A stretch of DNA of 64,000 nt from an uncultured Chloroflexia bacterium (GCA_963810095.1 CAWEMM010000012.1:544001-608000); one strand, 5' to 3'. Positions 11,398 to 48,363 are shown, numbered from the stretch's first letter. The notes: generated from the sequence alone by a model not told the origin. Numbers and translations: made by a program.

Positions 11398-12285
11398 ATG
11401 CACGTACGCGAGATCGAGGCGAAGACCTTGCTCTCTGCCTGCGCGAAGCCCGATCCATGGTTCGGGATCAAGTACACGATGAACCTGTATCGGGGCTGCG
11501 GGCATCACTGCATCTACTGCGACAGCCGCAGCGAGTGCTACCAGATCGCGGACTTCGACGGCGAGGTGCTGGTCAAAGCGAACGCGCTGGAGTTGCTGAA
11601 GAAGGAACTGCCGCGAAAGCGCGTGAAAGGCTACGTCAGCACTGGATCGATGAACGATCCGTACCAGCCGCTCGAACGGGTGCGCGGCTTGACGCGCGGC
11701 GCGCTCGAGATCGTCGCGGCCCATCGCTTTCCCGTCCATATTATCACCAAGGGCGACCTCGTCGTGCGCGATGTCGACCTGTTGTGTGCGATCCGCGACG
11801 CAACGGGGCCACGCGGCGCGGTCGTCAGTTTTACCATTACGACGCCCGACGACGACCTCTCGCGAAGACTGGAGCCGGGCGCGCCGGCGTCGTCGGCCCG
11901 GTTTGCCGCCTTGGCAGCACTTGCCGCGCGCGGCCTTTGGGCCGGCGTCACCCTGATGCCCGTGCTGCCCTTGATCGAGGATGACGAGGAGAGCGTGCGG
12001 CGGCTCGTGGAGCGTGCCGCAGGGTGTGGAGCGAAGTATGTGATTCCGGCCTGGGGGCTGACGTTGCGGAACCGACAGCGCACGTACTATTACCAGCAAC
12101 TGGACCGGCTGTTTCCAGGGCTACGGGAAAAGTATGAGCGTGCATACCGGGAGCGGTACTCGGCCGGCTCGCCGAACGCGCGCCGGCTCGAAAGAGTTTT
12201 CGACGGGCTGGCCTCGGGCCATCGTCTCGAACGATGCGTACCTCCGTACCAACCCCCTGAGGCGGAGCAACTCGCCCTGTTCTGA
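11398..12285 (+). CDS. Radical SAM protein (SplB/Rv2578c-like)
   Basis: NLYRGCGHHCIYCD CxxxCxxC motif; DPYQPLE. Confidence 0.88.
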   Translation: MHVREIEAKTLLSACAKPDPWFGIKYTMNLYRGCGHHCIYCDSRSECYQIADFDGEVLVKANALELLKKELPRKRVKGYVSTGSMNDPYQPLERVRGLTRGALEIVAAHRFPVHIITKGDLVVRDVDLLCAIRDATGPRGAVVSFTITTPDDDLSRRLEPGAPASSARFAALAALAARGLWAGVTLMPVLPLIEDDEESVRRLVERAAGCGAKYVIPAWGLTLRNRQRTYYYQQLDRLFPGLREKYERAYRERYSAGSPNARRLERVFDGLASGHRLERCVPPYQPPEAEQLALF

Positions 12286-13296
12286 CCCGCCAGCGCGGGC
12301 CTGAAGTCCGGTCGGGTTCAGGTCGCCCGAGCGTGCCGATCGCGCTCGCCGGCTCCGCCGCGCCGACCGCTGGTATTCGTCGAAGGCCACGGCCCCCAGG
12401 AGAATCAGCCCGCGCACGACGAACTGTGCGTAGATGCCCCAGCCGGCAAGCTGCATCCCATTGCCCAAGATCGCCAGCACGAACACGCCGGCCACGAGCG
12501 CAGGCACGTTGCCCTCGCCGCCCATGAAGCTAACCCCGCCCAGGATCGCGGCCGTCAGTGCCGTGAACTCCGTCCCCGGCCCGAAGGACGAGTGCGTCGT
12601 GTTTGCCTTGGAGACCATCACCATCGTTGCCACGGCGGTGAGGAAACCGCAGACCGTGTACGTGGAAATCTTGAGGAACTTGGTGTTCATCCCCGCAAGT
12701 CGCGACGCTTCTTCGTTGCCGCCCAGTCCGACGATCCGCAGCCCATAGACCGTTTGGTAGTATACAAGGCTCGCAACGACAACCACCGCGAGTGCCAGGA
12801 TTACGTCCAGCGGGACGCCAAGCACCTGGCCCTTCGTGATCACGAGAAACTGCTCAGGGTAGTTGCGGTACGTCTTGGATTGGCTGAGCATGTACGAGAT
12901 GCCCTGGAAGATGACAGCAGTGCCAAGCGTCGCAATAAGTGGGAAGATCTTCAGCCGAGTCACGATCAGGCCATTGACCAAGCCCAGAATCGTGCCCAGA
13001 ATCAGCCCGAGCAGGACCGCAGCCCACGGCGGCACGCCGTATACCGTCATCGCCATCGCGGTGACCACGCCGACAAGCGACATTTGGTAGCCGACCGACA
13101 AGTCCACGCCGCCGCCGATCATGACGAACGACAGCGCAACCGCCACGATTACGAAGTAGGTATTCTGCGTGACGATGTTGGTGAGGTTCCGGACCGTCAG
13201 GAAGTAGGGGCTGGAGAACGAAAACAGGGCCACCAGCGCGAACAGCACGAGCATGATGGCGTATTTTTGGAGGCCGCTGATTCTCGAATTCGACAT
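12121..13296 (-). CDS. Sugar ABC transporter permease (RbsC-like); the C-terminal tail is probably read-through from an indel (true stop likely near 12318)
   Basis: GGGVDLSVG, GGNEEASRLAG, AAILGGVSFMGGEG. Confidence 0.85.
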   Translation of the reverse strand: MSNSRISGLQKYAIMLVLFALVALFSFSSPYFLTVRNLTNIVTQNTYFVIVAVALSFVMIGGGVDLSVGYQMSLVGVVTAMAMTVYGVPPWAAVLLGLILGTILGLVNGLIVTRLKIFPLIATLGTAVIFQGISYMLSQSKTYRNYPEQFLVITKGQVLGVPLDVILALAVVVVASLVYYQTVYGLRIVGLGGNEEASRLAGMNTKFLKISTYTVCGFLTAVATMVMVSKANTTHSSFGPGTEFTALTAAILGGVSFMGGEGNVPALVAGVFVLAILGNGMQLAGWGIYAQFVVRGLILLGAVAFDEYQRSARRSRRARSARSGDLNPTGLQARAGGSEQGELLRLRGLVRRYASFETMARGQPVENSFEPARVRRAGRVPLPVCTLILFP

Positions 13297-13309
13297 ATTT
13301 CGGCGCGCC

Positions 13310-14100
13310 TTATCCAAATGACCGGTACTGGACTTCGGGTGCAGGGGTCCCGTTCTGGTCCTTGCCCTTGACGATCATCGTCACGACGTCGTCAAGGGTT
13401 ACCTTGCTCACGTCCATCACGTCCTGACGCTGGCCGCCTTTGAGGACGAAGACCCGATCGGCGATAGCGAGAACATCCGGGATCCGCTGCGTGATGAGCA
13501 GGACCGACAAACCGCGGTTTCGCAGGTCACGGATGAGCCCAAGCAGCTTGTTGGCCTCAGTAACTCCTAGGGCTGCAGTGGGCTCATCCATGATGAGGAT
13601 CTTGGAATCAAAGGCAATCGCGCGGGCGCATGCCACCATCTGTCGCTGACCGCCCGACATTCGCGCTGACGCTCATCCTGGGCGACTTAATGTCCACGCG
13701 GCAGTTCTTTGATCAGTTCCTCGGCCCGCCTGTACAGAGTCCGCTTGTCCAGAAACATCCCCAGCGGCCCGCGTGTACACTCTCGACCGATGAAGATGTT
13801 CCGGGCGACGTCAAGGTTGTTGAAGAGGGCGAGATCCTGGTAGATCATCGCGATCCCCATCCGGGCCGCATCCTGTGGGTTACGGATGTGCGCGACTTGC
13901 CCATCGATCAGAATGCTCCCCTCGTCGGGCAGGTGCGCGCCGGAGAGAACCTTCATCAGGGTCGACTTGCCGGCGCCGTTGTCGCCGACAAGCCCCATGA
14001 TTTCCCCCCGGCGCAGCTCCAGGTTCACATCCGCCAGCGCGCGCACGCCGCCGAAGCTTTTGCAGATGCTGCGCATCTCAACGACGTAGTCTGATTGCAT
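13310..14100 (-). CDS. Sugar ABC transporter ATP-binding protein (frameshift near 13700)
   Basis: [10 protein letters not shown] in one frame; [19 protein letters not shown] in the other. Confidence 0.88.
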
Positions 14101-14148
14101 TGTGCCATCCAAGTGCGGCGCTCGATCCAAGTAGCTGTGGGCGCCCGC

Positions 14149-15369
14149 TCAGGGCGTTCCGCTGACGACGCCAGAGTTGGCGACCGGCTTCACATCCAGT
14201 TTGCCGTCTACCGCAGTCGCCAGAGCAAGCGGGTCCCAAGTGACCTCCGAAAAGGGCTCGCCGCTCAGGATCTTTTTGGCAATCGCAACGGTGGAGCCCG
14301 GCAGATCGCCGCCGCCGAAGGCCACCGCGCCCCTAAACGCGCCCTTGCCCTGGGCCGCCTCCATAATCGCGTCGCCTTCTGGCCCGAACATCCCGACGCC
14401 GAAGACTGCAACCTTGCTCAGGTCCTTGATTGCGCTGGCAGAACCCTTGGCAACCTCGTCCACGATCGCCTTCGAGGCGCCATTTCCGCCGTCAGACGCG
14501 TAGGCGACCACAAGTTTGACGTTCGGGTTGGTCGTGAGGACATTCTGCATCGCTGTCTGGCCCGCCTGAAACATCTCAGCGCTGGGGGTCTGCACGATCT
14601 TGACTGCCGGGCTATACACCGGGTTGGCGACCCGGTCTGCGTCGCCTTTGCCAGCGAGATAGTTCCCCTTCGCATCGGAGATCGCGACGCCCATTTTGTC
14701 GATCAGTTCGCCGGCCGAGTTTTTCAAGTAAGGTTCGCTGATCATCAACAGGCCGTTGGAGCGTTCGACCGCCTCGGGATTGAGCGACGAGAGAAAGACG
14801 ACGGTCTCGATCGAGCCGGGCGCGGCATCGGGATAGGTTTGCTCGACCCATCGCTTCGCCATCAGCGCAGCATACTCGCCTGCCAGGAACTGGTCCATCT
14901 TCATGACGGCGTCGCGGCCCGACTGCCCCGGCTCACCTCCGGCAACCATCACTTTGACCCCCGCCTTGCGAGCGGCCTCAAGCTTCGGCAGCAGGCTGCT
15001 GGCTTCAGCCGCCATGGCGAAGAGCAACTTGGGTTTCATGGCCGTGAAGTTCTCGACCTGGGTCGCCTGAGTGTTCGGGTTACCGTCCGCACTAGCTGTC
15101 TGGACGTCGTACTCGTTGCCGAACTCCTTGACGAACGCGTCGCGGAGCGCCAGCATCAGAGGGTTATCCATGGCAGGCAGCGCCACCGCAAGGAGCGGCT
15201 TACCCGTGTTCTCGGGCGGCACAGTTGCCGCCGGCGCCTCTTTCGCGGGTGCGGTTGTCGCCGCTGGTTGGGCCGGCGCGGGTGCTGCGGGCGGAGCCCC
15301 TGTGCACCCGGCAAGTAGGATCAGAATGCCGAGCAGCGCGAGGGTGAGCGTGAGGGACAGACGGTTCAT
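14149..15369 (-). CDS. Sugar-type ABC substrate-binding lipoprotein (type I PBP)
   Basis: Lipobox LAGC, PA/T linker, ALPAMDNP, SADGNPNTQATQVE. Confidence 0.85.
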   Translation of the reverse strand: MNRLSLTLTLALLGILILLAGCTGAPPAAPAPAQPAATTAPAKEAPAATVPPENTGKPLLAVALPAMDNPLMLALRDAFVKEFGNEYDVQTASADGNPNTQATQVENFTAMKPKLLFAMAAEASSLLPKLEAARKAGVKVMVAGGEPGQSGRDAVMKMDQFLAGEYAALMAKRWVEQTYPDAAPGSIETVVFLSSLNPEAVERSNGLLMISEPYLKNSAGELIDKMGVAISDAKGNYLAGKGDADRVANPVYSPAVKIVQTPSAEMFQAGQTAMQNVLTTNPNVKLVVAYASDGGNGASKAIVDEVAKGSASAIKDLSKVAVFGVGMFGPEGDAIMEAAQGKGAFRGAVAFGGGDLPGSTVAIAKKILSGEPFSEVTWDPLALATAVDGKLDVKPVANSGVVSGTP

Positions 15370-15477
15370 CGTTCTTCTCCTTCCGATTGGTAGCCATCAT
15401 CGGCATAACCGGCATCATACCAGGGAGAATGTTCGAGCTGGCAGAACTGCCGCACTTGTCTTGTTGGACGAAATCTT

Positions 15478-15528
15478 GTCTTATGATATGATACGACGCA
15501 TCATAGCACGGGTCACCGCGCTTGTCAA
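15478..15528 (-). promoter_or_regulatory. Sigma70 promoter of ABC operon 1 with 17-bp operator
   Basis: Minus strand TTGACA(15528-15523)-N17-TATGAT with extended TG; operator GTCTTATGATATGATAC at 15478-15494. Confidence 0.75.
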
Positions 15529-15694: not shown

Positions 15695-16468
15695 GTGAAC
15701 AGAGATCCGAACGAATACAACGTGCGTGCGATCGAGCGCGCCCTCCAGATCCTGGAGTGCTTTGACGACGAGCATCCTGCGCGGGGCGTTTCGGAAATTG
15801 CCGAAGCGGTTGGCCTCCACAAGGCAACCACCCACCGCCTGATCACGACGCTGGCCAATCACGGCTATCTCGAGCGCCTCCCCGGCGAGCAGCATTACCG
15901 CCTCGGCATGCAATTGGCGACGCTGGGCTTGTCGATCCTGCGCGGCATGGATCTGCGCCGGGAGGCCGTGCCCTACATCGCGAACGTCGTGGCGCGCTGC
16001 GAGGAGACGTGCGACATGAGCGTGCTCGACCGGGGCGAGGCGTTGATCGTCGAGGTGATCCGCAGCCGGCACGTTCTCGCCATGGCGACGAGCGTCGGGC
16101 AGCGGCTCCCCCTGCACGCGACCGCCGGCGGCAAGGTGTTCCTCGCGTTTGCCCCCGAAGAGGAACGGGAGGCGCTGCTGGGGCGGCCGCTCAAGCGCTA
16201 CACGCCGAAGACGATCACGGACCCCGAGGTACTGCGCGAGGAAGCGGCGCGCTTCCTCGCGCAAGGGTATGCGTTTGACGACGAGGAATTCGAGGTGGGC
16301 GTGCGTGCGATCGCCGCACCCGTGCGGAATGCGCTCGACCAGGTCACGGCTGCGGTGAGTATGCCCGGACCGGTCACGCGCATCACGCCGGATCGCATCG
16401 CGGAAATCGGGCAGGCGATGATGGAGACGGCCAATGCGATCTCGCAGCGCCTGGGCTGGCGTGCCTAA
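15695..16468 (+). CDS. IclR family transcriptional regulator
   Basis: AIERALQILECF, GLHKATTHRL HTH; PLHATAGGK, GYAFDDEE, AIAAPV. Confidence 0.93.
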   Translation: MNRDPNEYNVRAIERALQILECFDDEHPARGVSEIAEAVGLHKATTHRLITTLANHGYLERLPGEQHYRLGMQLATLGLSILRGMDLRREAVPYIANVVARCEETCDMSVLDRGEALIVEVIRSRHVLAMATSVGQRLPLHATAGGKVFLAFAPEEEREALLGRPLKRYTPKTITDPEVLREEAARFLAQGYAFDDEEFEVGVRAIAAPVRNALDQVTAAVSMPGPVTRITPDRIAEIGQAMMETANAISQRLGWRA

Positions 16469-16491: not shown

Positions 16492-16527
16492 AGACGCCCG
16501 ACAGCACTTGCCGGGCGTCTACTTTTT
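16492..16527 (+). terminator. Intrinsic terminator after iclR-type gene
   Basis: AGACGCCCG...CGGGCGTCT followed by ACTTTTT. Confidence 0.6.
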
Positions 16528-16903
16528 ATCCAGCCGCGGCGGTCGGGATGTTGTGCTCTGACTGCATGACGCCTTCACGGAACTCCTGCACGTCCACCGA
16601 AAGCGAGAGGTAGCCCGTCGCGTACCGTTCGCCCAGCGTCTCTTTGAGCGCGCCGAAGACCCGGGCGGCGATCTCCTGCTGCACTTCGTGCGGCCGGCCC
16701 GCCTTGATCCACAGGGTGACATGGGCGAAAGCGTAGTCCGGGTTGCCGTCGCCCACGCGATACTCCGTCAGGCGAACCGCCCGGCTCTTGATAGCATTCT
16801 GCTTGATTGCGCCGGTTGCGGCCAGCTCCGCGTGCAGCCGGCCCAGCAGGGCCTGCACGTCGAAGACCAGGTTATCGGTATATTCCAGGGTCAGTTGTGG
16901 CAT
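16526..16903 (-). CDS. 5-carboxymethyl-2-hydroxymuconate isomerase (CHMI/HpcD)-like tautomerase
   Basis: Catalytic Pro-1 (MPQLTLEYTDNL), IKSRA, FAHVTL, GR, C-terminal HN. Confidence 0.85.
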   Translation of the reverse strand: MPQLTLEYTDNLVFDVQALLGRLHAELAATGAIKQNAIKSRAVRLTEYRVGDGNPDYAFAHVTLWIKAGRPHEVQQEIAARVFGALKETLGERYATGYLSLSVDVQEFREGVMQSEHNIPTAAAG

Positions 16904-16941: not shown

Positions 16942-17898
16942 CTATTCTACCCGCGGGGTCCCGTGCTCGTGAAACGACGCGATCGTCTGCAAGCCCCAGG
17001 CCTGGCCCTTCTTGCGCTCGGCCTCGCTCCAGACCACTGCCGGCCAATCGGGCGCAAGGATCAGGCGGGCGCCTGCGTTCGCAACCTCGAAGCGATTCCC
17101 GCCCGGCTCATACAGGTATAGAAAGAAGGTCTGCTGGATGGCGTGCTTGTGCGGCCCGGTCTCGATGTGGACGCCGTGCTCCAGGCAGATGTCCGCCGCT
17201 CGCAGCACCTCTTCGCGGCTGTCCACCGCATACGTCACATGATGAAGCCTGCCGTGCGCGCCGTAACGGTCTTCGGCAATGGCCACGTCATACGACTTGT
17301 TGCATACCGTCAGCCACGCGCCCTTCTCAGATCCGTCGTCGAAGATGATCTGCTCGGTCAGCCGGCAGCCGAGCGCGTCCTGCATGAAGGCACGATTCGC
17401 GGCGACGTCTGCCGCCAGCAAGTTGATGTGGTCGATCCGGCGGACGTTCGCCCCCCGCCCCGGGAAACGCGAGGCCTGGTTCTTCAGCGCGGGGCGCAGC
17501 TCGGCCGGCGCCTGGTACCACTCGGTCTCGTAGTAGATCTGGAGGTGGTGGCCGTCGGGGTCACGGAACTCGTAGGCCGGACCGTGCCCCAGTTCGCCGT
17601 CGGTCCAGCCGGCGCCGAGGCCCGTGCGCTCGACCGCCGCGACGCGGCGCTCGAGGGCAGCCTGGCTCGTCGCGCGGAACGCGTAGTGCCCCAGCCCGGG
17701 CTGTTTGGCGGCGGTGAGCTTAAGCGTGTGATGCTCGTAATCGTCCCACCCGCGCAGGTAGACCGAATCGCCCTGGCGGCCGCTCTCGACCATGCCCATA
17801 ATGTCTTTGAAGAAATGCAGGCTCTCGTCGGGCAGGGGCGTCAGCATCTCGACGTGCGCCAGGTGTGCGAGATCATATATGGGTTCAGCACCGGCCAT
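16942..17898 (-). CDS. Catechol 2,3-dioxygenase-type (VOC family) extradiol dioxygenase
   Basis: LAHVEMLTP, RIDHINL, LHHVTY, GPHKHAIQQTFFLYLYEPGGNRFE. Confidence 0.9.
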   Translation of the reverse strand: MAGAEPIYDLAHLAHVEMLTPLPDESLHFFKDIMGMVESGRQGDSVYLRGWDDYEHHTLKLTAAKQPGLGHYAFRATSQAALERRVAAVERTGLGAGWTDGELGHGPAYEFRDPDGHHLQIYYETEWYQAPAELRPALKNQASRFPGRGANVRRIDHINLLAADVAANRAFMQDALGCRLTEQIIFDDGSEKGAWLTVCNKSYDVAIAEDRYGAHGRLHHVTYAVDSREEVLRAADICLEHGVHIETGPHKHAIQQTFFLYLYEPGGNRFEVANAGARLILAPDWPAVVWSEAERKKGQAWGLQTIASFHEHGTPRVE

Positions 17899-17899
17899 C

Positions 17900-18541
17900 T
17901 TATCCTCCCCGGTTGCTCTCGACCACTGCCCGCAGACCGTGAACGTCGTAGGTCTGCGCACCGTCGAGCAAGCGTCCCCGCAGCGCATCTTCGCGCGCAC
18001 TGCGGGCGGCAGCGGCTTCGAGCACTTCCGTCGTGCGGGCGGCGGGAACACACACCGCCCCGTCCGCATCCAAAACGAGCAGGTCGCCTGGCGAAATGCG
18101 CATCCCGCCCACGGTCACCGGCACGTCCAGCCCGCCCACGATGTCCTTCGTTGCACCTTTGACCCGCACGTAGCGCGCCCAAATGGGCAGGCCGACGCGC
18201 GCCAGTTCGTCGTAGTCGCGAATGGCTGCGTCGACCAGCACGCCGGCCGCATGCCGCACGCGCACCTGGATCGCGAGCAGCTCGCCCATGAGCGCCACGG
18301 GCCGCGGCTCAGGCATGGTCAGCACCACGATGTCGCCGGGCTCGATCCGCTCGATTGCCGCGTGGACCATCAGGTTGTCGTCCTGGCCGCACGCGACCGT
18401 CCGTGCCGGCCCGGCAACCGAGCTCTGCGGCACGACCTGGATCAGAGGGACGTCGATGAGCCCTTCCCGGCCGCCGGCTTCATACACCGTCGCGACGCCG
18501 AGCGCCGCGAACCGGCTGCACATCTCTTTATCTACAGGCAT
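17900..18541 (-). CDS. galC: 4-carboxy-4-hydroxy-2-oxoadipate (HMG/CHA) aldolase, RraA family
   Basis: GVATVYEA, AGPARTV, DDNLMVHAA, MGELLA, DAAIRD, PGDLLVLDADGAV. Confidence 0.85.
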   Translation of the reverse strand: MPVDKEMCSRFAALGVATVYEAGGREGLIDVPLIQVVPQSSVAGPARTVACGQDDNLMVHAAIERIEPGDIVVLTMPEPRPVALMGELLAIQVRVRHAAGVLVDAAIRDYDELARVGLPIWARYVRVKGATKDIVGGLDVPVTVGGMRISPGDLLVLDADGAVCVPAARTTEVLEAAAARSAREDALRGRLLDGAQTYDVHGLRAVVESNRGG

Positions 18542-19248
18542 GTCACCACCCAAGGCAGCGTCCGCTGCAGCGCTTCGGCGTAGCGAACCTCCTCGCGGCC
18601 GGCAATGCGTCGGGCATGGTTGCCGCGGCGTGCGGCCAGGTCCGTATAGTAGCTCTGCAAGTATGCCTGCGCCTTCATCGCGGCCATCGCCTCGACCTTG
18701 CGACTGAAGACAGGCGTGATGTCGAGAAACGTATTGGGCGTGAAGCCACACAGCTCGGGTTGGTGCGGCTCAAAATAGTAGAGGTCCGGGGGTGTAATCC
18801 GGTCGAAGGCGCTGGCCACGCCCGCGCCCGCAGCCAACAGCCGCGCTTTCTGCACCGCCTCACACGCGACGGGATGGTCGGGATTGAACGGGTCGACGGG
18901 GGTGTGCGTGAGCACGATCGTTGGCCGCCACTGCCGGAACAGCGCCACCAGCGCGTCGAGTGCCCCCCCATCCACGACGAGGGGGTAGTCGCCCAGGTCC
19001 AGGCAGCGGAACGACGCACCGACCGCGGCCGCGGCCGCCTCCGCTTCCGCGTGGCGGATCTGCTTGACGTTTTCGACCGTCTGGCCGGGCCGCTTCCACA
19101 GCTCGCCCGATTCGCCCCGCTCGCCGTACGAAAGCGCGACGACCTCGGCCAGCCCGCCTTGCGCCACGGTCACGGCTATTGCGCCCGCGGCCCGCCAGAC
19201 AAAATCCGCGGCGTGCGCGCCGATGACCAGCAAACGTTGTTCCGCCAA
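18532..19248 (-). CDS. galB: 4-oxalomesaconate hydratase, PIG-L/LmbE family
   Basis: GAHAADFVWRAAGAIA, LSYGERGESGELW, DPFNPDHP, FEPHQPELC; adjacent to CHA aldolase. Confidence 0.88.
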   Translation of the reverse strand: MAEQRLLVIGAHAADFVWRAAGAIAVTVAQGGLAEVVALSYGERGESGELWKRPGQTVENVKQIRHAEAEAAAAAVGASFRCLDLGDYPLVVDGGALDALVALFRQWRPTIVLTHTPVDPFNPDHPVACEAVQKARLLAAGAGVASAFDRITPPDLYYFEPHQPELCGFTPNTFLDITPVFSRKVEAMAAMKAQAYLQSYYTDLAARRGNHARRIAGREEVRYAEALQRTLPWVVTCL

Positions 19249-19269: not shown

Positions 19270-19320
19270 AAAAACCAGGTTTCTGCGCCAGCTTCGCTAG
19301 CGTGGAGAAACCTGGTTTCT
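19270..19320. repeat. Family B repeat: two AGAAACCNGGTTTCT palindromes with a 21-bp spacer
   Basis: AAAAACCAGGTTTCT-GCGCCAGCTTCGCTAGCGTGG-AGAAACCTGGTTTCT; inverted copy at 40819-40869. Confidence 0.8.
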
Positions 19321-19323
19321 GGA

Positions 19324-20245
19324 CTATTGTGCGACCGTCTTCCGGCAGCCATCCAGGAAGTCCAGCACCCGGGCGACATTCTCGGGCGTCTCGAAGGCCG
19401 GGTCCGCGTGGCCCGCGCCTTCGAGCAGTTCCAGGGTGACCGGGACGCCCGGCGGCTTCGAGTTTGGCGGCCAGGTTGACGGACTGCTGAACCGGGACGA
19501 TGGCATCCTGCGTGCCGTGCTGGAGGAGGAAGGGCGGCAGTCCGGCCCGCACATAGCTCTCGGGGTTCGCCCGCGCCACCAGCTCGGGGGCCTCGGTGAT
19601 GGTGTGGCCCAGCAGCAGCGATTCGGGCGAGTGCGGCTCGTCGTGTCGCAGGCCGGGCGGCGGCAGCAGGCCGCTTTCGGCAAGCTGCGCGTCCATCTTG
19701 AGGAAATCGGTCGGGCCGAACCAGGCCACTACCGCCTGCACGGCTGAGCTTTCCCCGCCGTGGCCCAGGTTCGCGTCCTCCAGCTCGGCCACTCCGCCGG
19801 AAACGCCGGCCATGGTCGCCTGCCACCCGCCCGCCGAGCCGCCCCACGCGGCGATCCAACGCGGGTCCAGACCGTACTCGGCCGCGTGCCCGCGGAGCCA
19901 GCGGATCGCGGCTTTCAGATCCTGGATCAGCGCGGGGAATTTTGCCTCGCCGCTCAGCCGGTAGTTGACCGCGGCCACGGCATACCCCCGCTTCAGGCCC
20001 TCGAGCATGGGCAACACCTGCACGTCGCCCTTGTCGCAGCCCATGAAGGCGCCGCCGTGGATCGACAGGACTACGGGGAATGGACCCGGCCCCTGGTCGG
20101 GCAGGTACAGGTCCAACCGCTGTGCGGTTGACAGGGGCGCGTACTGCAGGTCGATGAACTTCCGCTTGATGTAGCGGGTATCGGCGGGGGGCGGTGGCTC
20201 TGGCACCGCGTAATGTTCGCCTCGGTCCTGGCTGTTTGGGATCAT
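19324..20245 (-). CDS. Alpha/beta hydrolase esterase (BD-FAE/Aes-like), frameshift near 19455
   Basis: LDLYLP, IHGGAF, NYRLS, WGGSAGG, HGTQDAIVP, GAGHAD. Confidence 0.85.
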
Positions 20246-21299: not shown

Positions 21300-21306
21300 G
21301 CGGCTC

Positions 21307-22894: not shown

Positions 22895-22902
22895 CAAACA
22901 GC

Positions 22903-39079: not shown

Positions 39080-40789
39080 ATGAAACTGATCTACGTTGAC
39101 ATGCATGAGCGAGAAATCCGGGAGGTCGAGGAGCCCCGTTACGAGCACTTCGGCGGCCGCGCGCTGATCGATCACATCCTGCTGGACCAGGTGCGGCCCA
39201 CCTGCGACGCGCTCGGCCCGCACAACAGGCTGATCTTTGCGCCGGGCTTGCTGGCGGGCTCGGGCGTCGCGACCGCGGGCCGGCTATCGGTGGGCGCGAA
39301 AAGCCCGCTGACCGGCGGGGTCAAGGAAGCCAATGCGGGCGGAACGGCCGGCGACACGCTGGCCAAAATGGACATCAAGGGGATTGTGGTCGAGGGCCAG
39401 CCCGAGCCGGGCGCACTCTGGCTGCTGCATGTCACGGCCGACGGAGCGCTCCTGCTTCCCGCCGAAGATCTGAAGGGCCTTGGCACCTACGCGACCGGCG
39501 ACAAGCTGCAGGAACGCTTTGGCGCGGACGCCACGGTGATCTGCATCGGGCCTGCGGGCGAGCAAGTGCTGACGGGCGCCAGCATCGCGGTCACCGGCCT
39601 GGCCGACCAGCGCAGCAACCATGCGGCCCGAGGCGGGCTCGGCGCGGTCATGGGCAGCAAGGGGCTGAAGGCGGTCGTGGTGAGCGGTAAGGGCGCGCGG
39701 CTGCGTAAGCCCGCCGAACCCGAACTGTTCAAGACCTCGAGTAAGCACTTCGCCGAGGTCCTCATCAGCGATCCGAAGACCGGCACAAAGGGATCTCAGC
39801 ACCTCTACGGCACCGCCTCCATCGTCGCGGCAGTGAACGAGATGGGGTCCATGCCCACTCGGAACTTCAGCACCGGCAGCTTTGCCGAAGCTGCGAACCT
39901 GACCGGCGAACACATGCGCGAGGTGATCCTCGAGCGCGGGGGCCTGGTGGGCACCCGGTGCATGCCCGGCTGCACGATCGCCTGCCGGAACAATTACGTG
40001 GACCAGGCGGGTGGATCGGTCGTCGGCACCCTGCAGTACGAGACCATTGCGTTGCTCGGCTCCAACCTGGGGCTGGGCAGCCTCGACCACGTCGCCCGGC
40101 CTGAATTACCTGTGCAACGACCTGGGCCTGGACACGATCGAAACGGGCGCGGCCCTGGGCGTGGCGCTCGAGGCCGGCTTGGGCGAGTTCGGCGACATGG
40201 CGAGCATCGAGGCGCTTCTCTGCCAGGTCTATGAGGGCACAGTAACGGGCAAGATGATCGGCAACGGCGCGGCGGTGACCGGGCGGTGCTGGGCGTGCGC
40301 CGCGTGCCCGTGGCACTCGGGCAGGCAATGCCGGGCTACGATCCGCGGTCGCTCAAGGGCAACGGCGTGACCTATGCCACTTCGCCGCAGGGCGCGGATC
40401 ACACGGCAGGCAACGCGTTCGGCGCGCGCAAAGAGGTCAACCCGCTTGGCGCCGGTGGACAGAAGGCCCTCTCCTTGAAGCTGCAATTGATCGGTGCTAT
40501 GCTGGACAGCACCGGGCTGTGCCTCTTCGCCCGTCCGCCCGTCCTGGCCGAGCCGCAGTTAATGGCCGACATGATCAATGGGCTGTACGGTTGGGGGTGG
40601 ACCGCGCAGGACGTAGACGCGGCCAACCGCGACGTGCTTCGGACCGAGCTGGAATTCAACCGCCGCGCTGGTCTGACCGCGGCCGACTACCGCATCCCCG
40701 AGTACATGTGCGAGGAGCCGCTTGCGCCGCACAATGCGGTGTTCGACGTGCCCGACGCCGACCTGGACTCGGTTTTCGAGACGCTGTAG
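39080..40789 (+). CDS. Aldehyde:ferredoxin oxidoreductase (W/Mo-pterin AOR family), two frameshifts
   Basis: KSPLTGGVKEANAGG, IGPAGE, ARGGLGAVMGSKGLKA, CMPGCTIAC, DLGLDTIE, YATSPQGADHTAG. Confidence 0.9.
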
Positions 40790-40818
40790 TCTTCGAGCGG
40801 CCGTTCGCCGGCGAACCC

Positions 40819-40869
40819 AGGAACCGGGTTTCTCCGGGCCAGCGACGCTGGCGCAGAAACCTGGTTCCT
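40819..40869. repeat. Family B repeat, second full copy
   Basis: AGGAACCGGGTTTCT-CCGGGCCAGCGACGCTGGCGC-AGAAACCTGGTTCCT. Confidence 0.8.
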
Positions 40870-40888: not shown

Positions 40889-42201
40889 GTGAGAAAAACC
40901 TATCACGTCCCGTACAGCAAGAGCACGATCGAGTTTAGCGTCCCGCCCGGTATGCTCGTCCACACGGCCGCGTCGCAGCCATGCGAGCCCGTGAGCGACG
41001 TGCCCCACGCCATTGCGCAGGCCCTTGCCCAGCCAATCGGTTCGCCGCGCCTGGCCGAGCTGGCTTCGGCGGGCACAGCGGGTGTGCATTGTCTTCACCG
41101 ACATCACCCGCGCGAGCCCCGACCACCTGCTCGTGCCGCCGCTGCTGGCCGAGCTCGAGCTGGCCGGCGTGCGGGACGAAGACATTACCCTGCTCTGCGG
41201 CATTGGGATGCACCGGCCTTCGACCCCGGCTGAGAAGATCGTCAAGCTCGGCGCGGAGATCGTGGCCCGCTACCGGGTGATCGACAACGAGCCCACTGAC
41301 CCTACTGCGCTCGTGGACCTCGGCGTGACCCCGAACGGCGTCCCCGTCCAGGTGCACCGGGCGGCAGCCGAGGCCGATCTCCTCATTGCAACGGGCATCG
41401 TCGAGCCACACCAGTATGCCGGCTACTCCGGCGGGCGCAAAACGCTGGCCGTCGGCGCGGCGGGCGAGCCGCTCATCGCGCATTCGCACGGACCCGCGTT
41501 TGTGGACCACCCCGGCACGCGCCTGGGCCAGATCGAAGGCAATCCCTTCCACGAGGCCATCACCGAGGCCGCCCGCCGCGCCAACCTGCGCTTCATCATT
41601 AACGTGGTGCTGGACGACGACAAGCGGGTGCTGAAGGTGGCCGCGGGTGCGACCGAGCCGGCGTTTGAGGCGCTGGTCGCGTTCGCCCGTTCGGTCTACG
41701 AGGTCGCCGGTGCCCCGCCAGTATGACATCGCGGTGGGCGGCGTGGGCTTCCCGAAAGACTGCAACCTCTACCAGGCCAGCCGGGCCCCCACCTACCTGT
41801 TCTTCGCGCCGACGCCCGTCGTGCGTTCCGGCGGCTTCCTGATCATCCCCGCCCGCTGTGAGGAAGGTGCGGGTGCAGGGCTGGGCGAGCAGCGTTTTCT
41901 CGCCGCCATGCGCGATGCGCCCAACATCCAGTGGATTTTGGACGACGCCCGCGCGCACGGCTACCCGCCCGGGCAGCAGCGAGCTTTCGTGCTCGCCAAG
42001 ACGCTGGAGCAGGCTAAGGTCGTGATCGTCGGCAGCGAATGCCCCGACCTGGTGGCGGACTGCAAGATGATTCCGGCCGCCACGATGGACGAGGCGTTCG
42101 CGATGGCCAGCGCCGCGCTGGGAAGCGACGCCAGCGTGCTGGTCGTGCCGCACGCCATGCTGACCCTGCCCGTCGTCACGCGTGGGCTTGCGGGGGCATA
42201 G
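40889..42201 (+). CDS. larA: Nickel-pincer-dependent lactate racemase (LarA) family protein, two frameshifts
   Basis: DITRASP, GMHR, EPHQYAGYSGGRK, NPFHE, NLYQA, CEEGAG. Confidence 0.87.
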
Positions 42202-42211
42202 GGGACTGCGA

Positions 42212-43232
42212 ATGACAAAGTCACGCCTCATGCCGGCGCTCCAGATCACCCGCCCGCGCACGTTTGTGCCGGTCGAGGTGCCCATCCCGACGCCCGAGTC
42301 CGTGTCCGTCCCGGCGATCCTCGTCCGGACCTTCTGTGTCTCGCTGTGTGGCAGCGACATCCCGAAGTTCACCGGCAGCAAGCGCCTGTTCGGCTATCCG
42401 CTGCCGCCGGGGTCCAGCGCCCACGAGTGCCTGGGCCAGGTCGTCGAAAGCACCTCTGACCAATTTGCGCCCGGGGAGTGGGTCATCGCGCTGCCCGAGA
42501 GCGACAAGGGGCTGGCGCAGTACTTCGTCGCGCAGGCCGCCAAGGCCGTCAAGCTGCCGTCCGACTTGGCGACCGCAGAAGAAAACACGCTGATCCAGCC
42601 GCTCTCGACCGTGCATCAGCGCGGCGGACCGTCTGCCGCCCGTTGCGGGCAAATCCGTCGCGGTCGTGGGCCTGGGCTCCATCGGGCTCATGTTCTGCTG
42701 GCTGCTGCGCCAGCAGGGTGCGGCCAGGATCATGGGGATCGACCCTTGCGAGTCACGGTGCGAACTGGCGCTGCAGTTCGGTGCGACAGACGTGCGGCCG
42801 GCGCGGAGCCTCGAAGTGGTGCACGCGGCCCGGCAGAGCCCGCAGCAGTGGGAACAGCCCGACATCATCGTGGAGGCGGTCGGCCACAACACCGAGACCA
42901 TCAACGACTGCTTCGAACTGGTCAAGCGCCGGGGGACGGTCCTCGCGTTCGGCGTGCCCGACCAAAACGTTTATCCGATCGAATACGAAAGCTTCTTTCG
43001 CAAGAACGCTCATTTGATAGCCGCGGTCACTCCCGACTGGAGCCCGTACCTGCTCAAGGCACGCGATCTGTTCCTGTCCTGCCGCAACGAGTTACGACCG
43101 CTGATCACCCATCATTTCTCAATCCTGGAGGCCGGCGCGGCCTATACAATGTACGAGCGGCACGCAGCGGGCATCATCAAGCCCCTGCTGGACGCCTCGT
43201 GCTGGGAGCTTTCGGGCGAATGCGCCGGCTGA
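42212..43232 (+). CDS. Zinc-binding (MDR) dehydrogenase, frameshift near 42620
   Basis: LCGSD, HECLG, GLGSIG, IVEAVG. Confidence 0.85.
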
Positions 43233-43271
43233 ACCGGAGCGATGCGCCGAACCATTTCGGCGGGGAGCGGT

Positions 43272-44565
43272 ATGACAGCCATCGACATGCTTGAGCGGCC
43301 ACCCGAGTCCGCCTATCTCAACTGCATCAAGTGCGGGCTTTGCCTCGCGGTCTGCCCCACCTACCGGGAGGCCATGACCGAGACCCAATCACCCCGCGGC
43401 CGCGTCATCATGGCCCGCAAGGGACTGGAAGGCGAGCTGGAACTGGGCACGGGCTTGACCGATCAGATGTACACCTGCTTTGCCTGCATGGCGTGCAACG
43501 AGATTTGCCCGGTCGGGATCAAGCCGGCCGACCTCGCGCTTGCCATGCGCAACATCGAAGACCGGGCGCGACCCCGCTGGTGGAAGAAGCCCCTTTTCGA
43601 GGCCCTGCTGCCGCATCCGGCCCGCATGGAAGCGGCCATGCTGCCCCTGCGGCTGTACCAATTGTTGGGGGTCCGCAAGCTGGCTTATGCGACCGGCGCG
43701 ACGCGGCTGCTGCCGTCACAGCTGCGCGACATGGAATCGCAGCTGCCCCATCTGCCGCAACGCCCCTTGCGCCGGGTGCTGCCCGAGACGACCTACCCGA
43801 TGGGCGCTAAGGCCGAACACCGGGTCGGCTTCTTCCTGGGCTGCGCACAGAGCTTGTTGTTTGCCGAAGAGAGCGCGGCGACCGTGCGGGTGCTCGCGCG
43901 CAATGGCTGCACCGTCGATCACCCCGCGCGAGACGCAGTGCTGCGGCATGCCCGCCCGCGGCTACGGCCGGGCCGACCTGGTGCAGGCACAGGCGCGCCA
44001 CAACATCGCACTCTTTGAGCGCCATAACGTCGATGCGATCATTACCGACTGTGCGACGTGCGGCTCGACCCTCAAAGAGTACGGCTCGTTCCTCTCCGGT
44101 CGACGACGAGTGGGCCGGCCGCGCAAAGGCATTCAGCGCCAAGGTCTACGACATCAGCGAGTTTCTGGCGAAAATCCCGCTCGCAGCCACCTACGGGCCG
44201 CGTCGAAGCCTCCGTGACCTACCACGATCCCTGCCATCTGCGCCGCGCGCAAGGGGTGTGGAAGCAGCCGCGCGCAGCTGCTGTCGATGATCGACGGCCT
44301 CGAGCTGCGCGAGATGCCCGCGGCAGACAGCTGCTGCGGCTCGGCCGGCAGCCAGTTGATCAGCCACTACGAGACGTCGCTGAAGGTGCTGAAGCGCAAG
44401 ACGGACAACCTGGCGAAGACCGGCGCGGACATGGTCGCATCCGGCTGTCCGGGCTGCCAGATGCAGCTGAGCGTGGGGATCAAGCGCCAGGGCCTCGACA
44501 TGCAGGTGGTCCATCCGATCGCGCTGCTGGACCAGGCTTACGGAGGCAACGATGGCAAACGCTGA
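43272..44565 (+). CDS. glcF: GlcF-like Fe-S oxidoreductase (2x4Fe-4S plus CCG domains), several frameshifts
   Basis: CIKCGLCLAVCPTY, SPRGR, CFACMACNEICP, QCCG, YHDPCHL, CCGSAG, CPGC. Confidence 0.85.
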
Positions 44566-45949
44566 CCGCAGTGGCCCGCACGCCGGCCTGGCAGCGCGCC
44601 TGGTGGCGATCGTGGGCCAGGACGGAGTCTTAACATCACCCGAGGACATGGTCGCGTACAGCTATGACGGCACCTTTGTCGAGAGCCGTCCCGACGTCGT
44701 GGTGCTGCCCCGCAGCACGGACGAGGTGAGCCGCATCGTCAGGCTGGCGGGCGAGCTGCACACGCCGATCGTCCCGCGCGGCATGGGCTCGGGGCTGGCG
44801 GCTGCGTCCGTGCCCGTGGGCGGCGGCATCGTCGTGTGCCTCACCCGCATGAACCGCATCCTCGAGATCGACACTGCAAATGCAACCGTGCGCACCGAGG
44901 CCGGCGTGATCACGGCCGAGCTGCAGGCCGAGGTCGAGAAGCTCGGCCTCTTCTACCCGCCCGACCCCTCGAGCATCCGCCACTCGACCATCGGCGGGAA
45001 TATCGCCTGCAACGCCGGCGGGCCGCGCTGCCTCAAGTACGGCGTGACGGGCGATTACGTCATGGGCTTGACGGTGGTGCTGGCCGACGGCGGTGTCATG
45101 CGCACCGGCGGCAAGCCTGTCAAGGACGTGACCGGCTACGACATGAATGGCCTCTTCACGGGGTCCGAGGGCACCTTAGGCATCATTACCGAGGCCCTTC
45201 TGCGCCTGGTTGCCAAGCCGCGTTTCGCCCGCACCGGGCTTGTGGAGTTCGCCAGCCTGGACGACGCGTCGGCCGCGGTCAATGCCATCCTGTCTGCCGG
45301 CATCGTGCCCGCCACGCTCGAGCTCATGGACCAGACCGCCATCATCTGCGTCGAAGAAGCGATGCACCTGGGGCTGGCGACCGACGTCGAGGCGAGCCTG
45401 ATCGTGGAGACGGACGGCTCGGACGAGCAGACGGTGCTGCGCGAGATCGAGGCAGCCGCGGCCATCTGCACCCGGTCGGGCGCACGCTCGGTCAAGATCG
45501 CGCAGAGCGAGGCCGAGCGGGCCGCGCTGTGGCGGGCCCGCCGCTCCATCTCGCCTGCGCTCGGGCGGCGCGCGCCCAACAAGCTGGGCGAGGACATCAC
45601 GGTGCCGCGCTCCGCCATCCCGGAAGCCGCGCGGCGGCTGCGCGCGATCAGCGAAAAGCACGGTCTGCCCATCGTGATTTTCGGCCATGCAGGCGACGGC
45701 AACTTGCACCCCAACATCCTGTTTGACAAGCGTGATCCGCAGCAGTGGGCCACGGTCGAGGAGATGGTCAAGGAGGTCTTCGCACTGTCGCTCGATCTGG
45801 GCGGTACGCTGTCGGGCGAGCACGGCGTCGGCGTCCTGAAGCGCCCGTACCTGGAGGACGCGCTCGGCCCCGTCTCGATCGGCGTGCAGCGCAAGATCAA
45901 GCAAGCCCTCGACCCGGAGAACATTTTCAACCCAGGCAAGATCTGGTAG
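44552..45949 (+). CDS. glcD: GlcD-like FAD-linked 2-hydroxyacid dehydrogenase
   Basis: [51 protein letters not shown]. Confidence 0.9.
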   Translation: MANADRSGPHAGLAARLVAIVGQDGVLTSPEDMVAYSYDGTFVESRPDVVVLPRSTDEVSRIVRLAGELHTPIVPRGMGSGLAAASVPVGGGIVVCLTRMNRILEIDTANATVRTEAGVITAELQAEVEKLGLFYPPDPSSIRHSTIGGNIACNAGGPRCLKYGVTGDYVMGLTVVLADGGVMRTGGKPVKDVTGYDMNGLFTGSEGTLGIITEALLRLVAKPRFARTGLVEFASLDDASAAVNAILSAGIVPATLELMDQTAIICVEEAMHLGLATDVEASLIVETDGSDEQTVLREIEAAAAICTRSGARSVKIAQSEAERAALWRARRSISPALGRRAPNKLGEDITVPRSAIPEAARRLRAISEKHGLPIVIFGHAGDGNLHPNILFDKRDPQQWATVEEMVKEVFALSLDLGGTLSGEHGVGVLKRPYLEDALGPVSIGVQRKIKQALDPENIFNPGKIW

Positions 45950-45962: not shown

Positions 45963-46029
45963 AACACAAACACAAAGCCACGGAGGAGCTGCCCATCCGC
46001 TCGTCTTCGTGTCTTCGTGCCTTTGTGTT
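45963..46029. repeat. Family A palindromic repeat
   Basis: AACACAAACACAAAGCCACGGAG ... CTTCGTGTCTTCGTGCCTTTGTGTT. Confidence 0.78.
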
Positions 46030-46092
46030 CAGCGCGGCTCTCCCACTCACCCACATACCATGAGAATCAATTGACACCCAATGGAGGGAGAG

Positions 46093-48363
46093 ATGCGTAA
46101 AGTAACGCCCGAAGATGCCCTGGAGTATCACAAGCTTGGCGGCAGACCCGGCAAGTTGGCGATCACACCGACCAAGCCCATGTCGACGCAGTACGACCTG
46201 GCGCTGGCCTACACGCCCGGCGTCGCGGTGCCGGTGCTGGAAATCGCAAAGAATGCCGACCTGGCCTACGACTATACGGCCAAGGGTAACCTTGTGGCCG
46301 TGGTCACGAATGGCACCGCCATCCTGGGCCTGGGCGACCGCGGCGCGTTGGCGTCCAAGCCCGTCATGGAAGGCAAGGCGGTCCTCTTCAAGAAGTTCGC
46401 CGACGTCGACGTCTTCGATATTGAGTTGGACACCCACGACCCCGAGATCATCATCCAGACGGTCAAAGCGCTCGCGCCAACCTTCGGGGGCATCAACCTG
46501 GAGGACATCAAGGCGCCCGAGTGCTTCTACGTCGAGGAAACGCTGCGGGCGGCGTTGGACATCCCCGTGTTTCACGACGACCAGCACGGCACCGCGATCA
46601 TCTCGGGCGCGGCCTTACTGAACGGGCTGGAGATCGTCGGCAAGCGAATCGAGGACGTGCGGGTGGTCATTTCCGGCGCCGGCGCCGCGGCCATCTCGTG
46701 CGGCGAGCACATGGTGCGCCTGGGCGTGCGCCGGGAGCATATCCTGCTCGTCGACTCGAAGGGCGTCGTGTACCGGGGCCGCACCGAGGGCATGAACAGC
46801 TACAAGGCGCGCTTCGCCGTCGAGACAGGCGCTCGCACGCTGGCGGATGCCTGCCGCGGCGCCGACGTCTTCTACGGCCTGTCGGCTGCCGACGTGCTCA
46901 AGCCCGAAATGCTGCTGACGATGGCCGAACGGCCGCTCGTCTTTGCCATGGCCAACCCCGACCCGGAAATCCGCTACGACCTGGCGCGCGCCACCCGGCC
47001 CGACGCGATCATCGCGACCGGCCGCTCGGACTACCCGAACCAGATCAACAACGTGCTCGGGTTCCCGTTCATCTTCCGGGGCGCGCTCGACGTTCAGGCG
47101 CGGGCGATCAACGAGGAGATGAAGGTGGCGGCCACGCACGCGCTCGCACAGCTGACCCGGGAGGACGTGCCCGACAGCGTGCTGCGCGCCTACGGACTGG
47201 ACAGCCTGCGCTTCGGCCCCGACTACATCGTGCCGAAGCCGCTCGACCCCCGGCTGATCGAGTGCCTGCCGCCGGCCATCGCCAAGGCCGCCATGGAGAC
47301 GGGCGCGGCCCGCAAGCAGATCGACCTCGACGAGTACCGCGAGCAGCTCGCGGTGCGCCTGGGCAAGGGCGAGCAGGTGCGCCATTTCCTGACCCACTGC
47401 GCGCAGCGGTCGGGCGGCACGAAACGCATCGTGTTTGCCGAGGGCGAGGAGCCCAAGATCCTGCGCGCGGCCGTCCGCCTCGTGCACGAGCAGATCGCGC
47501 TGCCGGTGCTGCTGGGCCGGCCGGACGTGATCCATCGCGAGTTGGAGCGGCTGGGGCTGGAGTGCTGTGCGGAGGTCGTGGATCCCAGCGATTGCGGGCG
47601 CCACGAGGCATACGCCCAGGCGTACTACGAGCTACGCCGGCGCAAGGGCGTCACGCGGGCTGAGGCGCAGCGGCTGATGCGCGACCCGAACGTCCTCGCA
47701 CCCATGATGGTCAAGATGGGCGAGGCCGACGCTGCCGTTTCCGGGCTCAGCCACCATTACCCCGAAGTCATCCGGCCTGCGCTCCAGATCCACCACACCG
47801 GACCCGGCACCCACCTCGTCGCCGGCGTATACCTGATGATCGTCACCGACGGGCTGGGCCGCCAGCGCCCCTACCTGTTCACCGATACGACCGTGAACAT
47901 CGATCCGTCGGCCGAAGACCTGGCCGACATTGCCTGTCTGGCGGCCGATTTCGCGCGGCGGCTGGGGCTCGAGCCGCGGGTGGCCATGTTGTCGTTCTCC
48001 AACTTCGGCAGCACGCGGCATCCGTTTGCCGAGAAGGTGCAGCGGGCGGTTGCATTGGTGCGTGAGCGCTGCCCGGGGCTCGCCGTCGACGGCGAGATGC
48101 AGGCGGACACGGCCGTCGTGCCTGAGCTGATCGACGAGCGGTTCCCGTTCAGCCAGGTGAAGGATGCCAATGTGCTCGTGTTCCCGTCGCTCGACGCGGC
48201 GAACGTGGCCTACAAGCTGCTGGCGCGACTGGGCAACGCGGAGGCCATCGGGCCGATCCTCCTCGGCATGGGTGCGCCCATCCACGTGCTGCAGGCCGGC
48301 GACGACGTGCGCGATATCGTCGACATTGCGGCGGTCGCGGTGATGGACGCGATGGGCTGCTAA
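46093..48363 (+). CDS. maeB: NADP-dependent malic enzyme fused to a phosphotransacetylase-like domain
   Basis: [54 protein letters not shown]. Confidence 0.95.

Follow-up and report, generated by a model that had tools for sequence, protein, structure and literature searches.

How would a bacterium use a gene island that joins a tannase to ring-cleavage, inositol-type and oxygen-sensitive enzymes? The question is raised by positions 12121 to 48363 of a 64,000-nucleotide stretch of DNA (hereafter the window; G000:C12:544001-608000 in our numbering, from accession GCA_963810095.1) in an assembly of 6.1 Mb, 16 contigs and 88.5% completeness. The host appears to be a member of the Chloroflexota, probably of the class Anaerolineae, to judge from the named nearest homologues. 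The gene families of the island, the operator common to its operons and their linkage across genomes can be read directly from the sequence, and the island is very probably a genuine phenolic regulon. As to its function, we lean slightly towards one IclR-type regulon that would serve gallate-type hydroxybenzoates and plant esters through two ring-opening routes, one of them oxic and the other anoxic.

A common operator and conserved linkage

A 17-bp palindrome, repeated in tandem with a 3-bp spacer, stands 5' at all five island promoters (positions 15458, 23988, 28112, 28293 and 30737). When each promoter in turn was left out of the matrix, the sites at 15458, 23988, 28112 and 30737 ranked 3, 12, 1 and 2 among 6,130,817 genome positions, and the site at 28293, which lay outside the training set, ranked 9. 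A matrix built from the window alone, with a threshold set at the maximum of 10 block shuffles, detected sites in 17 of the 18 related islands, that of G032 being the exception, and in none of the 3 controls. Where gene coordinates existed, the sites in relatives lay at operon starts, in locus L044 directly 5' of galB. A preliminary description of the window had proposed a motif common to the island operons, and had noted that O2-requiring and O2-sensitive enzymes occur together in one regulon; both points hold. At the divergent tannase promoters, operators 28112–28148 and 28293–28329 each lie just downstream of a sigma70-type -10 box, which the second also overlaps. This is the position of a repressor and suggests repression. 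We infer that the IclR protein of the island binds the operator; the island of the congener G001 has two IclR genes, and the one compared is 35% identical to that of the window. The operator was not detected by a repeat finder, and a lone half-site resembling it, some 3 kb from fumarase genes on contig C10, was dropped because it is not tandem.

Among 40 relatives, close orthologues of both the tannase and the dioxygenase were found in G001 alone, where the same modules occur in another order between the same flanking genes, without ABC importer 2 and maeB and with an added tannase/feruloyl esterase of family PF07519. Reshuffled islands are present in G041, G042, G044, G045 and G049, and partly in G046. 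The linkage of the sub-clusters that the preliminary description assumed is thus seen in related genomes, and the reshuffling of modules without loss of linkage argues for one function.

Gene content of the island

Coding open reading frames (ORFs) were chosen by a codon model, and Pfam was run on 48 of them and NCBIfam on 43. All genes named in the preliminary description were found in place, three of them above curated cut-offs. Its list was correct as far as it went and omitted the Liv importer, the nitroreductase, the V4R-like gene, the TIM-barrel gene and the cupin, which are the most conserved parts. The features are as follows.

12121–15369, minus strand: sugar-type ABC importer 2 (ABC2), with binding protein (14149–15369), ATPase (13310–14100, frameshifted) and permease (12121–13296); Pfam, NCBIfam
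15458–15494: tandem operator 5' of the ABC2 operon, leave-one-out rank 3 of 6.13 million
15626: single operator half-site 5' of iclR
15695–16468, plus strand: IclR-family regulator (Pfam), the likely operator-binding protein
16526–16903, minus strand: CHMI-family tautomerase with N-terminal proline (Pfam), proposed stand-in for GalD
16942–17898, minus strand: VOC (type I) ring-cleavage dioxygenase (NCBIfam), proposed gallate dioxygenase
17900–18523, minus strand: RraA-family aldolase for 4-hydroxy-4-methyl-2-oxoglutarate/4-carboxy-4-hydroxy-2-oxoadipate (HMG/CHA), GalC/LigK-like; Pfam, NCBIfam
18532–19248, minus strand: GalB 4-oxalomesaconate hydratase, by homology to 5CGZ (E = 7e-60)
19324–20245, minus strand: cytoplasmic esterase of the BD-FAE family with GxSxG at residue 135; its C-terminal boundary is approximate and a frameshift probable
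20295–23960, minus strand: sugar-type ABC importer 1 (ABC1), with frameshifts in binding protein and ATPase; it opens the gal operon both in this genome and in G001
23988–24024: tandem operator 5' of the ABC1-esterase-gal operon, rank 12
24490–25451, minus strand: IolN-like creatininase-family hydrolase with a C-terminal frameshift; proposed substrate a cyclic 2-hydroxy-1,3-dione
25581–26496, minus strand: 'U32-like' TIM-barrel protein, frameshifted, without conserved Cys; proposed metal-dependent aldolase
26540–26902, minus strand: small cupin (Pfam), proposed ketol isomerase
27092–28087, minus strand: Ldh_2-family 2-hydroxyacid dehydrogenase; Pfam, NCBIfam
28112–28329: divergent promoters with tandem operators 28112–28148 and 28293–28329
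28650–30512, plus strand: subtype-B tannase (NCBIfam); hydrophobic N-terminus, taken by eye for a signal peptide
30737–30773: tandem operator 5' of the nitroreductase-to-maeB gene run, rank 2
30836–31519 and 31516–31992, plus strand: nitroreductase and V4R/RdxA_C-like protein (Pfam)
32002–32901 and 32910–33708, plus strand: GctAB-type CoA-transferase, alpha and beta (beta frameshifted)
33759 (start), plus strand: 2x[4Fe-4S] ferredoxin; the nitroreductase-to-ferredoxin block spans 30836–33920
34055–39008, plus strand: Liv-type ABC importer LivG, F, H, M and K; G and K frameshifted
39080–40789, plus strand: aldehyde:ferredoxin oxidoreductase (AOR) of the ordinary AOR type, frameshifted
40889–45949, plus strand: LarA-type 2-hydroxyacid racemase (start approximate), zinc-dependent alcohol dehydrogenase (Zn-ADH), GlcF and GlcD; first three frameshifted
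46081–48363, plus strand: NADP malic enzyme MaeB; Pfam, NCBIfam

The gal module and a probable oxic branch

Identification of GalB by homology is secure: the solved 4-oxalomesaconate hydratase 5CGZ is its sole PDB match at E ≤ 1e-10. The GalC/RraA-like aldolase is assigned at the family level, with 173 bits to NF006731 (cut-off 179) and 162 to TIGR02798 (cut-off 304.5). The dioxygenase passes the catechol 2,3-dioxygenase model TIGR03211 (343 bits, cut-off 320.2), and its metal ligands H157, H220 and E271 are found in 84 of 84 homologues. Its Tyr203, a tyrosine in 83 of the 84, aligns with a His of 3LM4, and the surrounding motif suggests that this position corresponds to His200 of homoprotocatechuate dioxygenase, a second-sphere residue according to the accessible part of PMC5291488. 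Among solved chains the nearest is 9WGJ (E = 8e-115), which also carries this tyrosine and is labelled a catechol 1,2-dioxygenase; a literature search found no paper on it. An H200F change is reported to allow intradiol cleavage. For gallate to yield 4-oxalomesaconate, the ring must break between two hydroxylated carbons.

The dioxygenase subfamily is widespread, with 592 confirmed places. In the neighbourhoods of the best 80 of these 592, galB was present within 10 kb in 41, galC in 40 and an adjoining CHMI gene in 10; a LigI-like gene was seen in 12 and LigM in 4. Neither LigI nor LigM had a match in the G000 genome, which favours direct cleavage of gallate over 4,5-cleavage of protocatechuate. 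It is probable, on this evidence, that the island encodes an oxic gallate branch in which the VOC dioxygenase and the CHMI-family protein would take the place of GalA and GalD. No VOC gallate dioxygenase is described in the literature that we searched, which took in few subscription papers. The neighbours of the His-to-Tyr VOC dioxygenase in Alphaproteobacteria include, besides galB and galC, an NMT1-like gene in 25 of the 80 loci (for example, L061:8900-9847), the LigI-like gene of the 12 loci being an amidohydrolase. A SnoaL-like gene, not found in G000, follows the CHMI gene on its 3' side in several copies of the module (L042:11271-11939; G001:C21:87961-88579).

The gallate pathway of Pseudomonas putida KT2440 comprises GalA, GalD, GalB, GalC, the regulator GalR and GalT/GalP (PMC9942251, in the part available). 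Like it, the island operon joins a GalB homologue, a candidate CHA aldolase of the RraA family, a ring-cleavage dioxygenase and a tautomerase. Unlike it, the island has a VOC type I dioxygenase with Tyr at the second-sphere His site instead of a LigAB type II enzyme (type II being also the class of DesB in the available text of PMC3962378), a CHMI-fold tautomerase where GalD would stand, an IclR rather than a LysR regulator, and uptake by ABC importers. A LigAB-type GalA is not in the cluster, the single PF02900 match of the genome lying on another contig; nor did Pfam detect GalD or the LysR regulator GalR in the cluster, GalD not having been searched genome-wide. As predicted here, the oxic half resembles the gal pathway in function without belonging to it.

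A conserved core around IolN

The conserved unit of the island consists of the cupin, the TIM barrel, the IolN-like hydrolase and the AOR, together with the nitroreductase, the V4R-like protein and the CoA-transferase. The IolN-like protein scores 441 bits against NF041098 (cut-off 245) at 24618–25451, and 81 bits against creatininase. Homologues at E ≤ 1e-90 are present in 53 of 401 genomes of the class, 25 of them with at least 65% identity to the G032 query. In 22 mapped neighbourhoods, a 2-kb stretch of G610 being excluded, the TIM barrel and the AOR adjoined IolN in 13 of 13 cases at 67–81% identity and in 0 of 9 at 51–62%; an IolO-like gene was present in 5 of those 9. In a quick tree of 52 of the 89 sequences, 15 metagenome rows among them, 33 core-context rows fell on one side of a branch with an SH-like approximate likelihood-ratio support of 99, so that on this tree the core IolN is a clade apart from the inositol-pathway IolN. 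Several genomes carry both types.

The inositol pathway of Thermotoga maritima reportedly runs through IolG, IolM, IolN and IolO (families NF041097-9). The island resembles it in an IolN above the cut-off and in the proposed chemistry, a retro-Claisen hydrolysis of a cyclic 2-hydroxy-1,3-dione; it differs in the partners of IolN (cupin, TIM barrel, AOR and CoA-transferase) and in the separate clade. No IolG, IolM or IolO was detected in the island by Pfam or NCBIfam, and an IolO-like gene lies on contig C14. The IolN operon is therefore probably not, as the preliminary description had it, a device for digesting the sugar or inositol core of a tannin: these partners are missing here, its IolN stands in a separate clade, and its usual company is the CoA-transferase module and enzymes that tailor phenolic acids.

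Eighty metagenome loci of the TIM-barrel gene held a cupin in 75 cases, IolN in 72, IclR in 50, AOR in 39 and Zn-ADH in 29. Among the 20 that spanned 12 kb or more, the corresponding counts were cupin 20, IolN 20, IclR 19 and AOR 19, with Liv genes in 17, Ldh_2 in 15 and the CoA-transferase in 12–13. The CoA-transferase accompanied 32 of 35 core handles, or 30 of 33 core genomes after removal of two duplicates; none of the 10 controls and none of the 3 gal-only genomes had it. Core IolN is carried by 7 of 10 Chloroflexota genomes with the gal module, compared with 25 of 400 class genomes sampled.

The TIM-barrel protein belongs to an unassigned family (at least 4,465 matches among 8,000 candidates scored), and a PDB profile search returned nothing for it. 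An alignment-based model with a predicted local distance difference test (pLDDT) score of 87 (49 for the single-sequence fold) matched CutC with a Z score of 16.2 (root-mean-square deviation 2.8, 203 residues aligned), the U32 protein Mk0906 with 14.9 (2.7, 185) and the class II aldolase YdjI with 14.7 (3.2, 209). Acidic and His residues are invariant. The Fe-S U32 hydroxylases (UbiU/V, RlhA) feature a conserved Cys cluster; that identity was rejected, as across 50 sequences no column that is invariant or conserved at 90% holds a Cys. Of 7 loci fetched for distant paralogues (about 40% identity), 3 have a galactonate-dehydratase-like gene next to the paralogue (L133:10072-12172, L135:10252-14300 and L139:8264-10382), and two of these 3 paralogues are also near family-4 alpha-galactosidases. 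In galactonate loci an aldolase for a 2-keto-3-deoxy acid is expected, which leads us to infer an aldolase role for the island protein; the paralogues themselves are possibly an unrecognised family of 2-keto-3-deoxy-aldonate aldolases.

The CoA-transferase is closest to glutaconate CoA-transferase. BamB was rejected as the identity of the AOR, since the G032 orthologue matches AOR over its full length (E = 2e-76) and BamB at its N-terminus only (E = 4e-17). The 158-aa V4R-like protein resembles those of RdxA_C/ATC-hydrolase-type clusters, which we take as a lead only, and a nitroreductase-V4R fusion was set aside on the weak evidence that no longer homologue scored. A short frameshifted ORF 3' of IolN (24119–24347, minus strand) looks MoaD/ThiS-like by eye and has no Pfam match; a ThiS-family gene lies 3' of the AOR in G032. 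No description of the core was found in the literature, within the same coverage as above.

Tannase, esterases and other accessory genes

The island tannase scores 323.8 bits against NF041556 (tannase_B; cut-off 300). Alignment to 6YQ4 places its triad at S192, D475 and H509 (motifs at 190, 471 and 508); K374, E392 and D477 also align, and by the L. plantarum numbering they would be the galloyl-site residues. The roles of the triad and of the galloyl-site Lys, Glu and Asp in subtype-B tannase are described in the accessible part of PMC4233993. With a model score above cut-off, a triad as in L. plantarum TanLpl and in 6YQ4 and 4J0C, and putative galloyl-site motifs, the protein is a credible candidate for a galloyl-ester hydrolase. 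It differs from the TanLpl type in an export signal (judged by eye), a C-terminal extension and its place in a ring-cleavage regulon rather than with gallate decarboxylase.

The subtype-B tannase was not found in any of the 10 other gal-module genomes searched. In the 33 core genomes it was found in 5 (3 above cut-off), and PF07519 tannase/feruloyl esterases in 12, and 15 of the 33 had at least one of the two families. Neither family was seen in the 10 controls, which carry the other IolN type alone. Subtype-B tannase is an accessory: the ester theme holds and the single enzyme does not. The 'whole-tannin island' of the preliminary description keeps its tannase, with triad and putative galloyl motifs, and its association with tannase-family esterases, and the label itself, given 5 of 33, is too narrow.

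Other genes beside the core point to phenolic acids. In G495 a hydroxycinnamoyl-CoA hydratase/lyase there scores 422 bits against NF006588 (cut-off 276), and it is accompanied by corrinoid methyltransferase genes, a second AOR and a CoA-transferase of class III. In L158 a three-gene corrinoid methyltransferase set lies 3' of IolN and may encode an aryl O-demethylase. A reductive dehalogenase like 4RAS (E = 6e-88; TIGR02486 171, cut-off 160) stands 5' or 3' of the Liv genes in several copies of the island; 4RAS itself reportedly acts on halogenated hydroxybenzoates. Between IolN and AOR in L188 (5305–7557) and G548 (C4) there is an acetylene-hydratase-like molybdopterin enzyme (E = 5e-135 to 2E7Z), possibly akin to catechol dehydroxylases. 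Such accessories strip esters, methyl groups, side chains and halogens from phenolic acids, and the substrate on which they converge would most simply be a hydroxybenzoate.

In G000 itself, corrinoid methyltransferase genes like those beside the core elsewhere lie away from the island (L260:6188-8092, at G000:C12 about 442–444 kb, and G000:C9:529-533 kb). In G045, larB and probable larE/larC genes for the nickel-pincer cofactor adjoin the island (L121:16866-19638); their G000 counterparts are on contig C2.

A proposed pathway and its difficulties

The tannase and the esterase would release gallate, which would then be imported. With O2, the VOC dioxygenase would open gallate to 4-oxalomesaconate, which the CHMI-family protein would tautomerise, GalB would hydrate the product to CHA, and GalC would yield pyruvate and oxaloacetate. 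This whole sequence, from release to oxic cleavage, has good support. Without O2, the conserved core would open the same kind of ring, a prediction with moderate support: for anoxic fission of the aromatic ring by the core we regard the chances as evenly balanced. The steps that we sketch for it are speculative. The CoA-transferase would activate the acid; the nitroreductase, V4R-like protein and ferredoxin would dearomatise it to a 2-hydroxy-1,3-dione at the level of dehydroshikimate or dehydroquinate; and the IolN-like enzyme would hydrolyse the ring. The cupin might then convert the terminal ketol to an aldehyde, which AOR would oxidise to a 2-hydroxy acid; LarA, Ldh_2 and GlcDF would give the 2-oxo acid, and the TIM barrel would cleave this to pyruvate and a C4 acid taken up by MaeB and fumarase. 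That this exact order is correct is quite unlikely.

The proposed logic, dearomatisation followed by hydrolysis of a cyclic 1,3-dione, is like that of the anaerobic tannin/phloroglucinol route, which comprises tannase, gallate decarboxylase, transhydroxylase, PGR, DPGC, TfD and TAL (PMC10470551, in the part available). None of the families of that route (SDR reductase, cyclase-family hydrolase, BKACE lyase, Mo transhydroxylase and UbiD) was found by Pfam among the 48 island ORFs; the three UbiD genes of G000 are all outside the island.

A number of observations weigh against a two-route hydroxybenzoate regulon. There is no recognised aryl-ring reductase in the island. A 2-electron reduction of gallate gives a 2-oxo acid without the 4-OH that aldol cleavage needs, so an extra hydration is required; a dione at the quinate level ends at CHA, whereas simply reduced gallate does not. 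The 80 metagenome TIM-barrel loci, with 10-kb flanks, contain no gal gene and no tannase B, and among 26 core genomes chosen without regard to the gal module GalB is present in 5 (0 of 10 controls); islands with both routes are therefore the less common kind. A nearby galB is lacking in half of the 80 dioxygenase loci, 18 of the 33 core genomes (incomplete metagenome-assembled genomes) have neither tannase family, and the corrinoid methyltransferases could serve other methyl donors. The genome counts are descriptive, related genomes not being independent samples, and IolN identity was the sole basis for counting 9 of the 33 genomes as core, their neighbourhoods being unseen. The insertions in G474 and G513 and the frameshifts, both treated below, belong here as well.

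Alternative explanations

The most serious alternative divides the ester between the modules: the gal module would take the aromatic half and the core the cyclitol half. Quinate or shikimate would undergo two oxidations to a 1,3-dione, which IolN would hydrolyse and which would end as CHA or as oxaloacetate and a C3 unit. IolN does pass the inositol-pathway model, the island has two sugar-type ABC importers, Zn-ADH is frequent in the core loci, and the quinate skeleton reaches CHA with no added hydration step. In G474 and G513, moreover, IolN is followed on its 3' side by an insertion that holds IolM (537 bits against a cut-off of 450), a gene like IolG and a carboxylate permease, and in L152 an IolG-like gene and a permease lie downstream of it. 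The cyclitol part of the preliminary description, improbable in its sugar or inositol version, may thus still hold in the form of a quinate-type cyclitol acid. However, the CoA-transferase module that nearly always accompanies the core is not needed on a quinate route, the accessory enzymes act on aromatic acids, the intact island alcohol dehydrogenase has no NCBIfam match at 1e-20 (IolM included), and Pfam revealed no shikimate dehydrogenase or dehydroquinase family in the island. We judge this explanation unlikely on balance; the G474 and G513 insertions fit entry of cyclitol acids, and aromatic and cyclitol entries may meet at one dione.

It is less probable still, indeed improbable, that the core handles aliphatic products of plant esters, such as sugar acids, amides, aldehydes and 2-hydroxy acids, and that the gal module alone opens rings. 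Such a role would suit the creatininase, Ldh_2, LarA, GlcD and Liv families, which act mostly on aliphatic acids or amides, as well as the occurrence of TIM-barrel paralogues in galactonate-type loci and the lack of a known ring reductase. Yet the IolN-like protein is far closer to IolN than to creatininase, and 21 of the 26 core genomes sampled without bias lack GalB, several of them keeping esterases, the dehalogenase or the hydroxycinnamoyl-CoA lyase beside the core. Genomes of this kind would need another way to use the aromatic acid.

Comparison with intact homologues gave 14 frameshifts in 28 island genes, or 0.52 per kb. In 80 genes outside the island, tested likewise, there were 17 (0.17 per kb), a third of that rate. 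A reference-free count found 8 in the island, compared with a genome mean of 5.1 per 36 kb, a 90th percentile of 9 and 872 genome-wide. Contigs of related strains have one base fewer at 23293/23294 and at 22240, beside two of the island breaks; DNA sequencing runs, which shared at most 0.20 of words, served solely to check two indel sites. Assembly error is likelier than decay as the source of the breaks. That the island is real but decaying into pseudogenes is therefore very improbable, and a chance pile-up of unrelated operons is refuted by the conserved operator and linkage.

Other features of the window

The GC content of the island equals that of the surrounding DNA. ABC2 is an accessory module, found also in G042, G044 and G610. 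Its permease frame (12121–13296) extends 165 bp into a convergent radical SAM gene (11392–12285) and is longer than its homologues, probably through a further frameshift. In a PDB profile search for a clue to the ligands, the ABC2 binding protein had no match and the Liv binding protein had weak matches alone. A pair of 50-nt inverted repeats (88% complementary) occupies two intergenic gaps of the island (19273–19322 and 40817–40866) and is probably a scattered element like the repetitive extragenic palindromes. Beyond the island lies a second glcD-glcE-glcF set (60701–63987, minus strand), kept in G001 at about 70–89% identity. Three heme-copper oxidases are encoded in G000.

Implications

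What is new here is the common operator, the linkage with the CoA-transferase, the phenolic accessories and the His-to-Tyr site. Combined in their boldest form, for which the chances are somewhat adverse and which we offer tentatively, the data would describe O2-independent fission of gallate or protocatechuate in Anaerolineae without a decarboxylation that yields pyrogallol and without phloroglucinol or benzoyl-CoA reductase. It would proceed by CoA activation, flavin/ferredoxin dearomatisation, IolN hydrolysis, a tungsten AOR and a new TIM-barrel aldolase. Acids derived from lignin, tannins and halophenols would be funnelled into it by interchangeable esterases, O-demethylases, the hydroxycinnamoyl-CoA lyase and the dehalogenase, and facultative lineages would have an oxic shortcut in the His-to-Tyr VOC gallate dioxygenase, placed under the operator of the pathway.

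The island offers testable candidates in an altered-site type I gallate dioxygenase, a CHMI-fold tautomerase, a TIM-barrel family and an operator for mapping the regulon. The release of carbon from anoxic soils and sediments is believed to be limited by phenolic breakdown. If the proposal is true, there would be a second anaerobic route beside the phloroglucinol route as outlined in the available part of PMC10470551, and the poorly understood Anaerolineae would gain a defined role in the turnover of polyphenols and lignin monomers.

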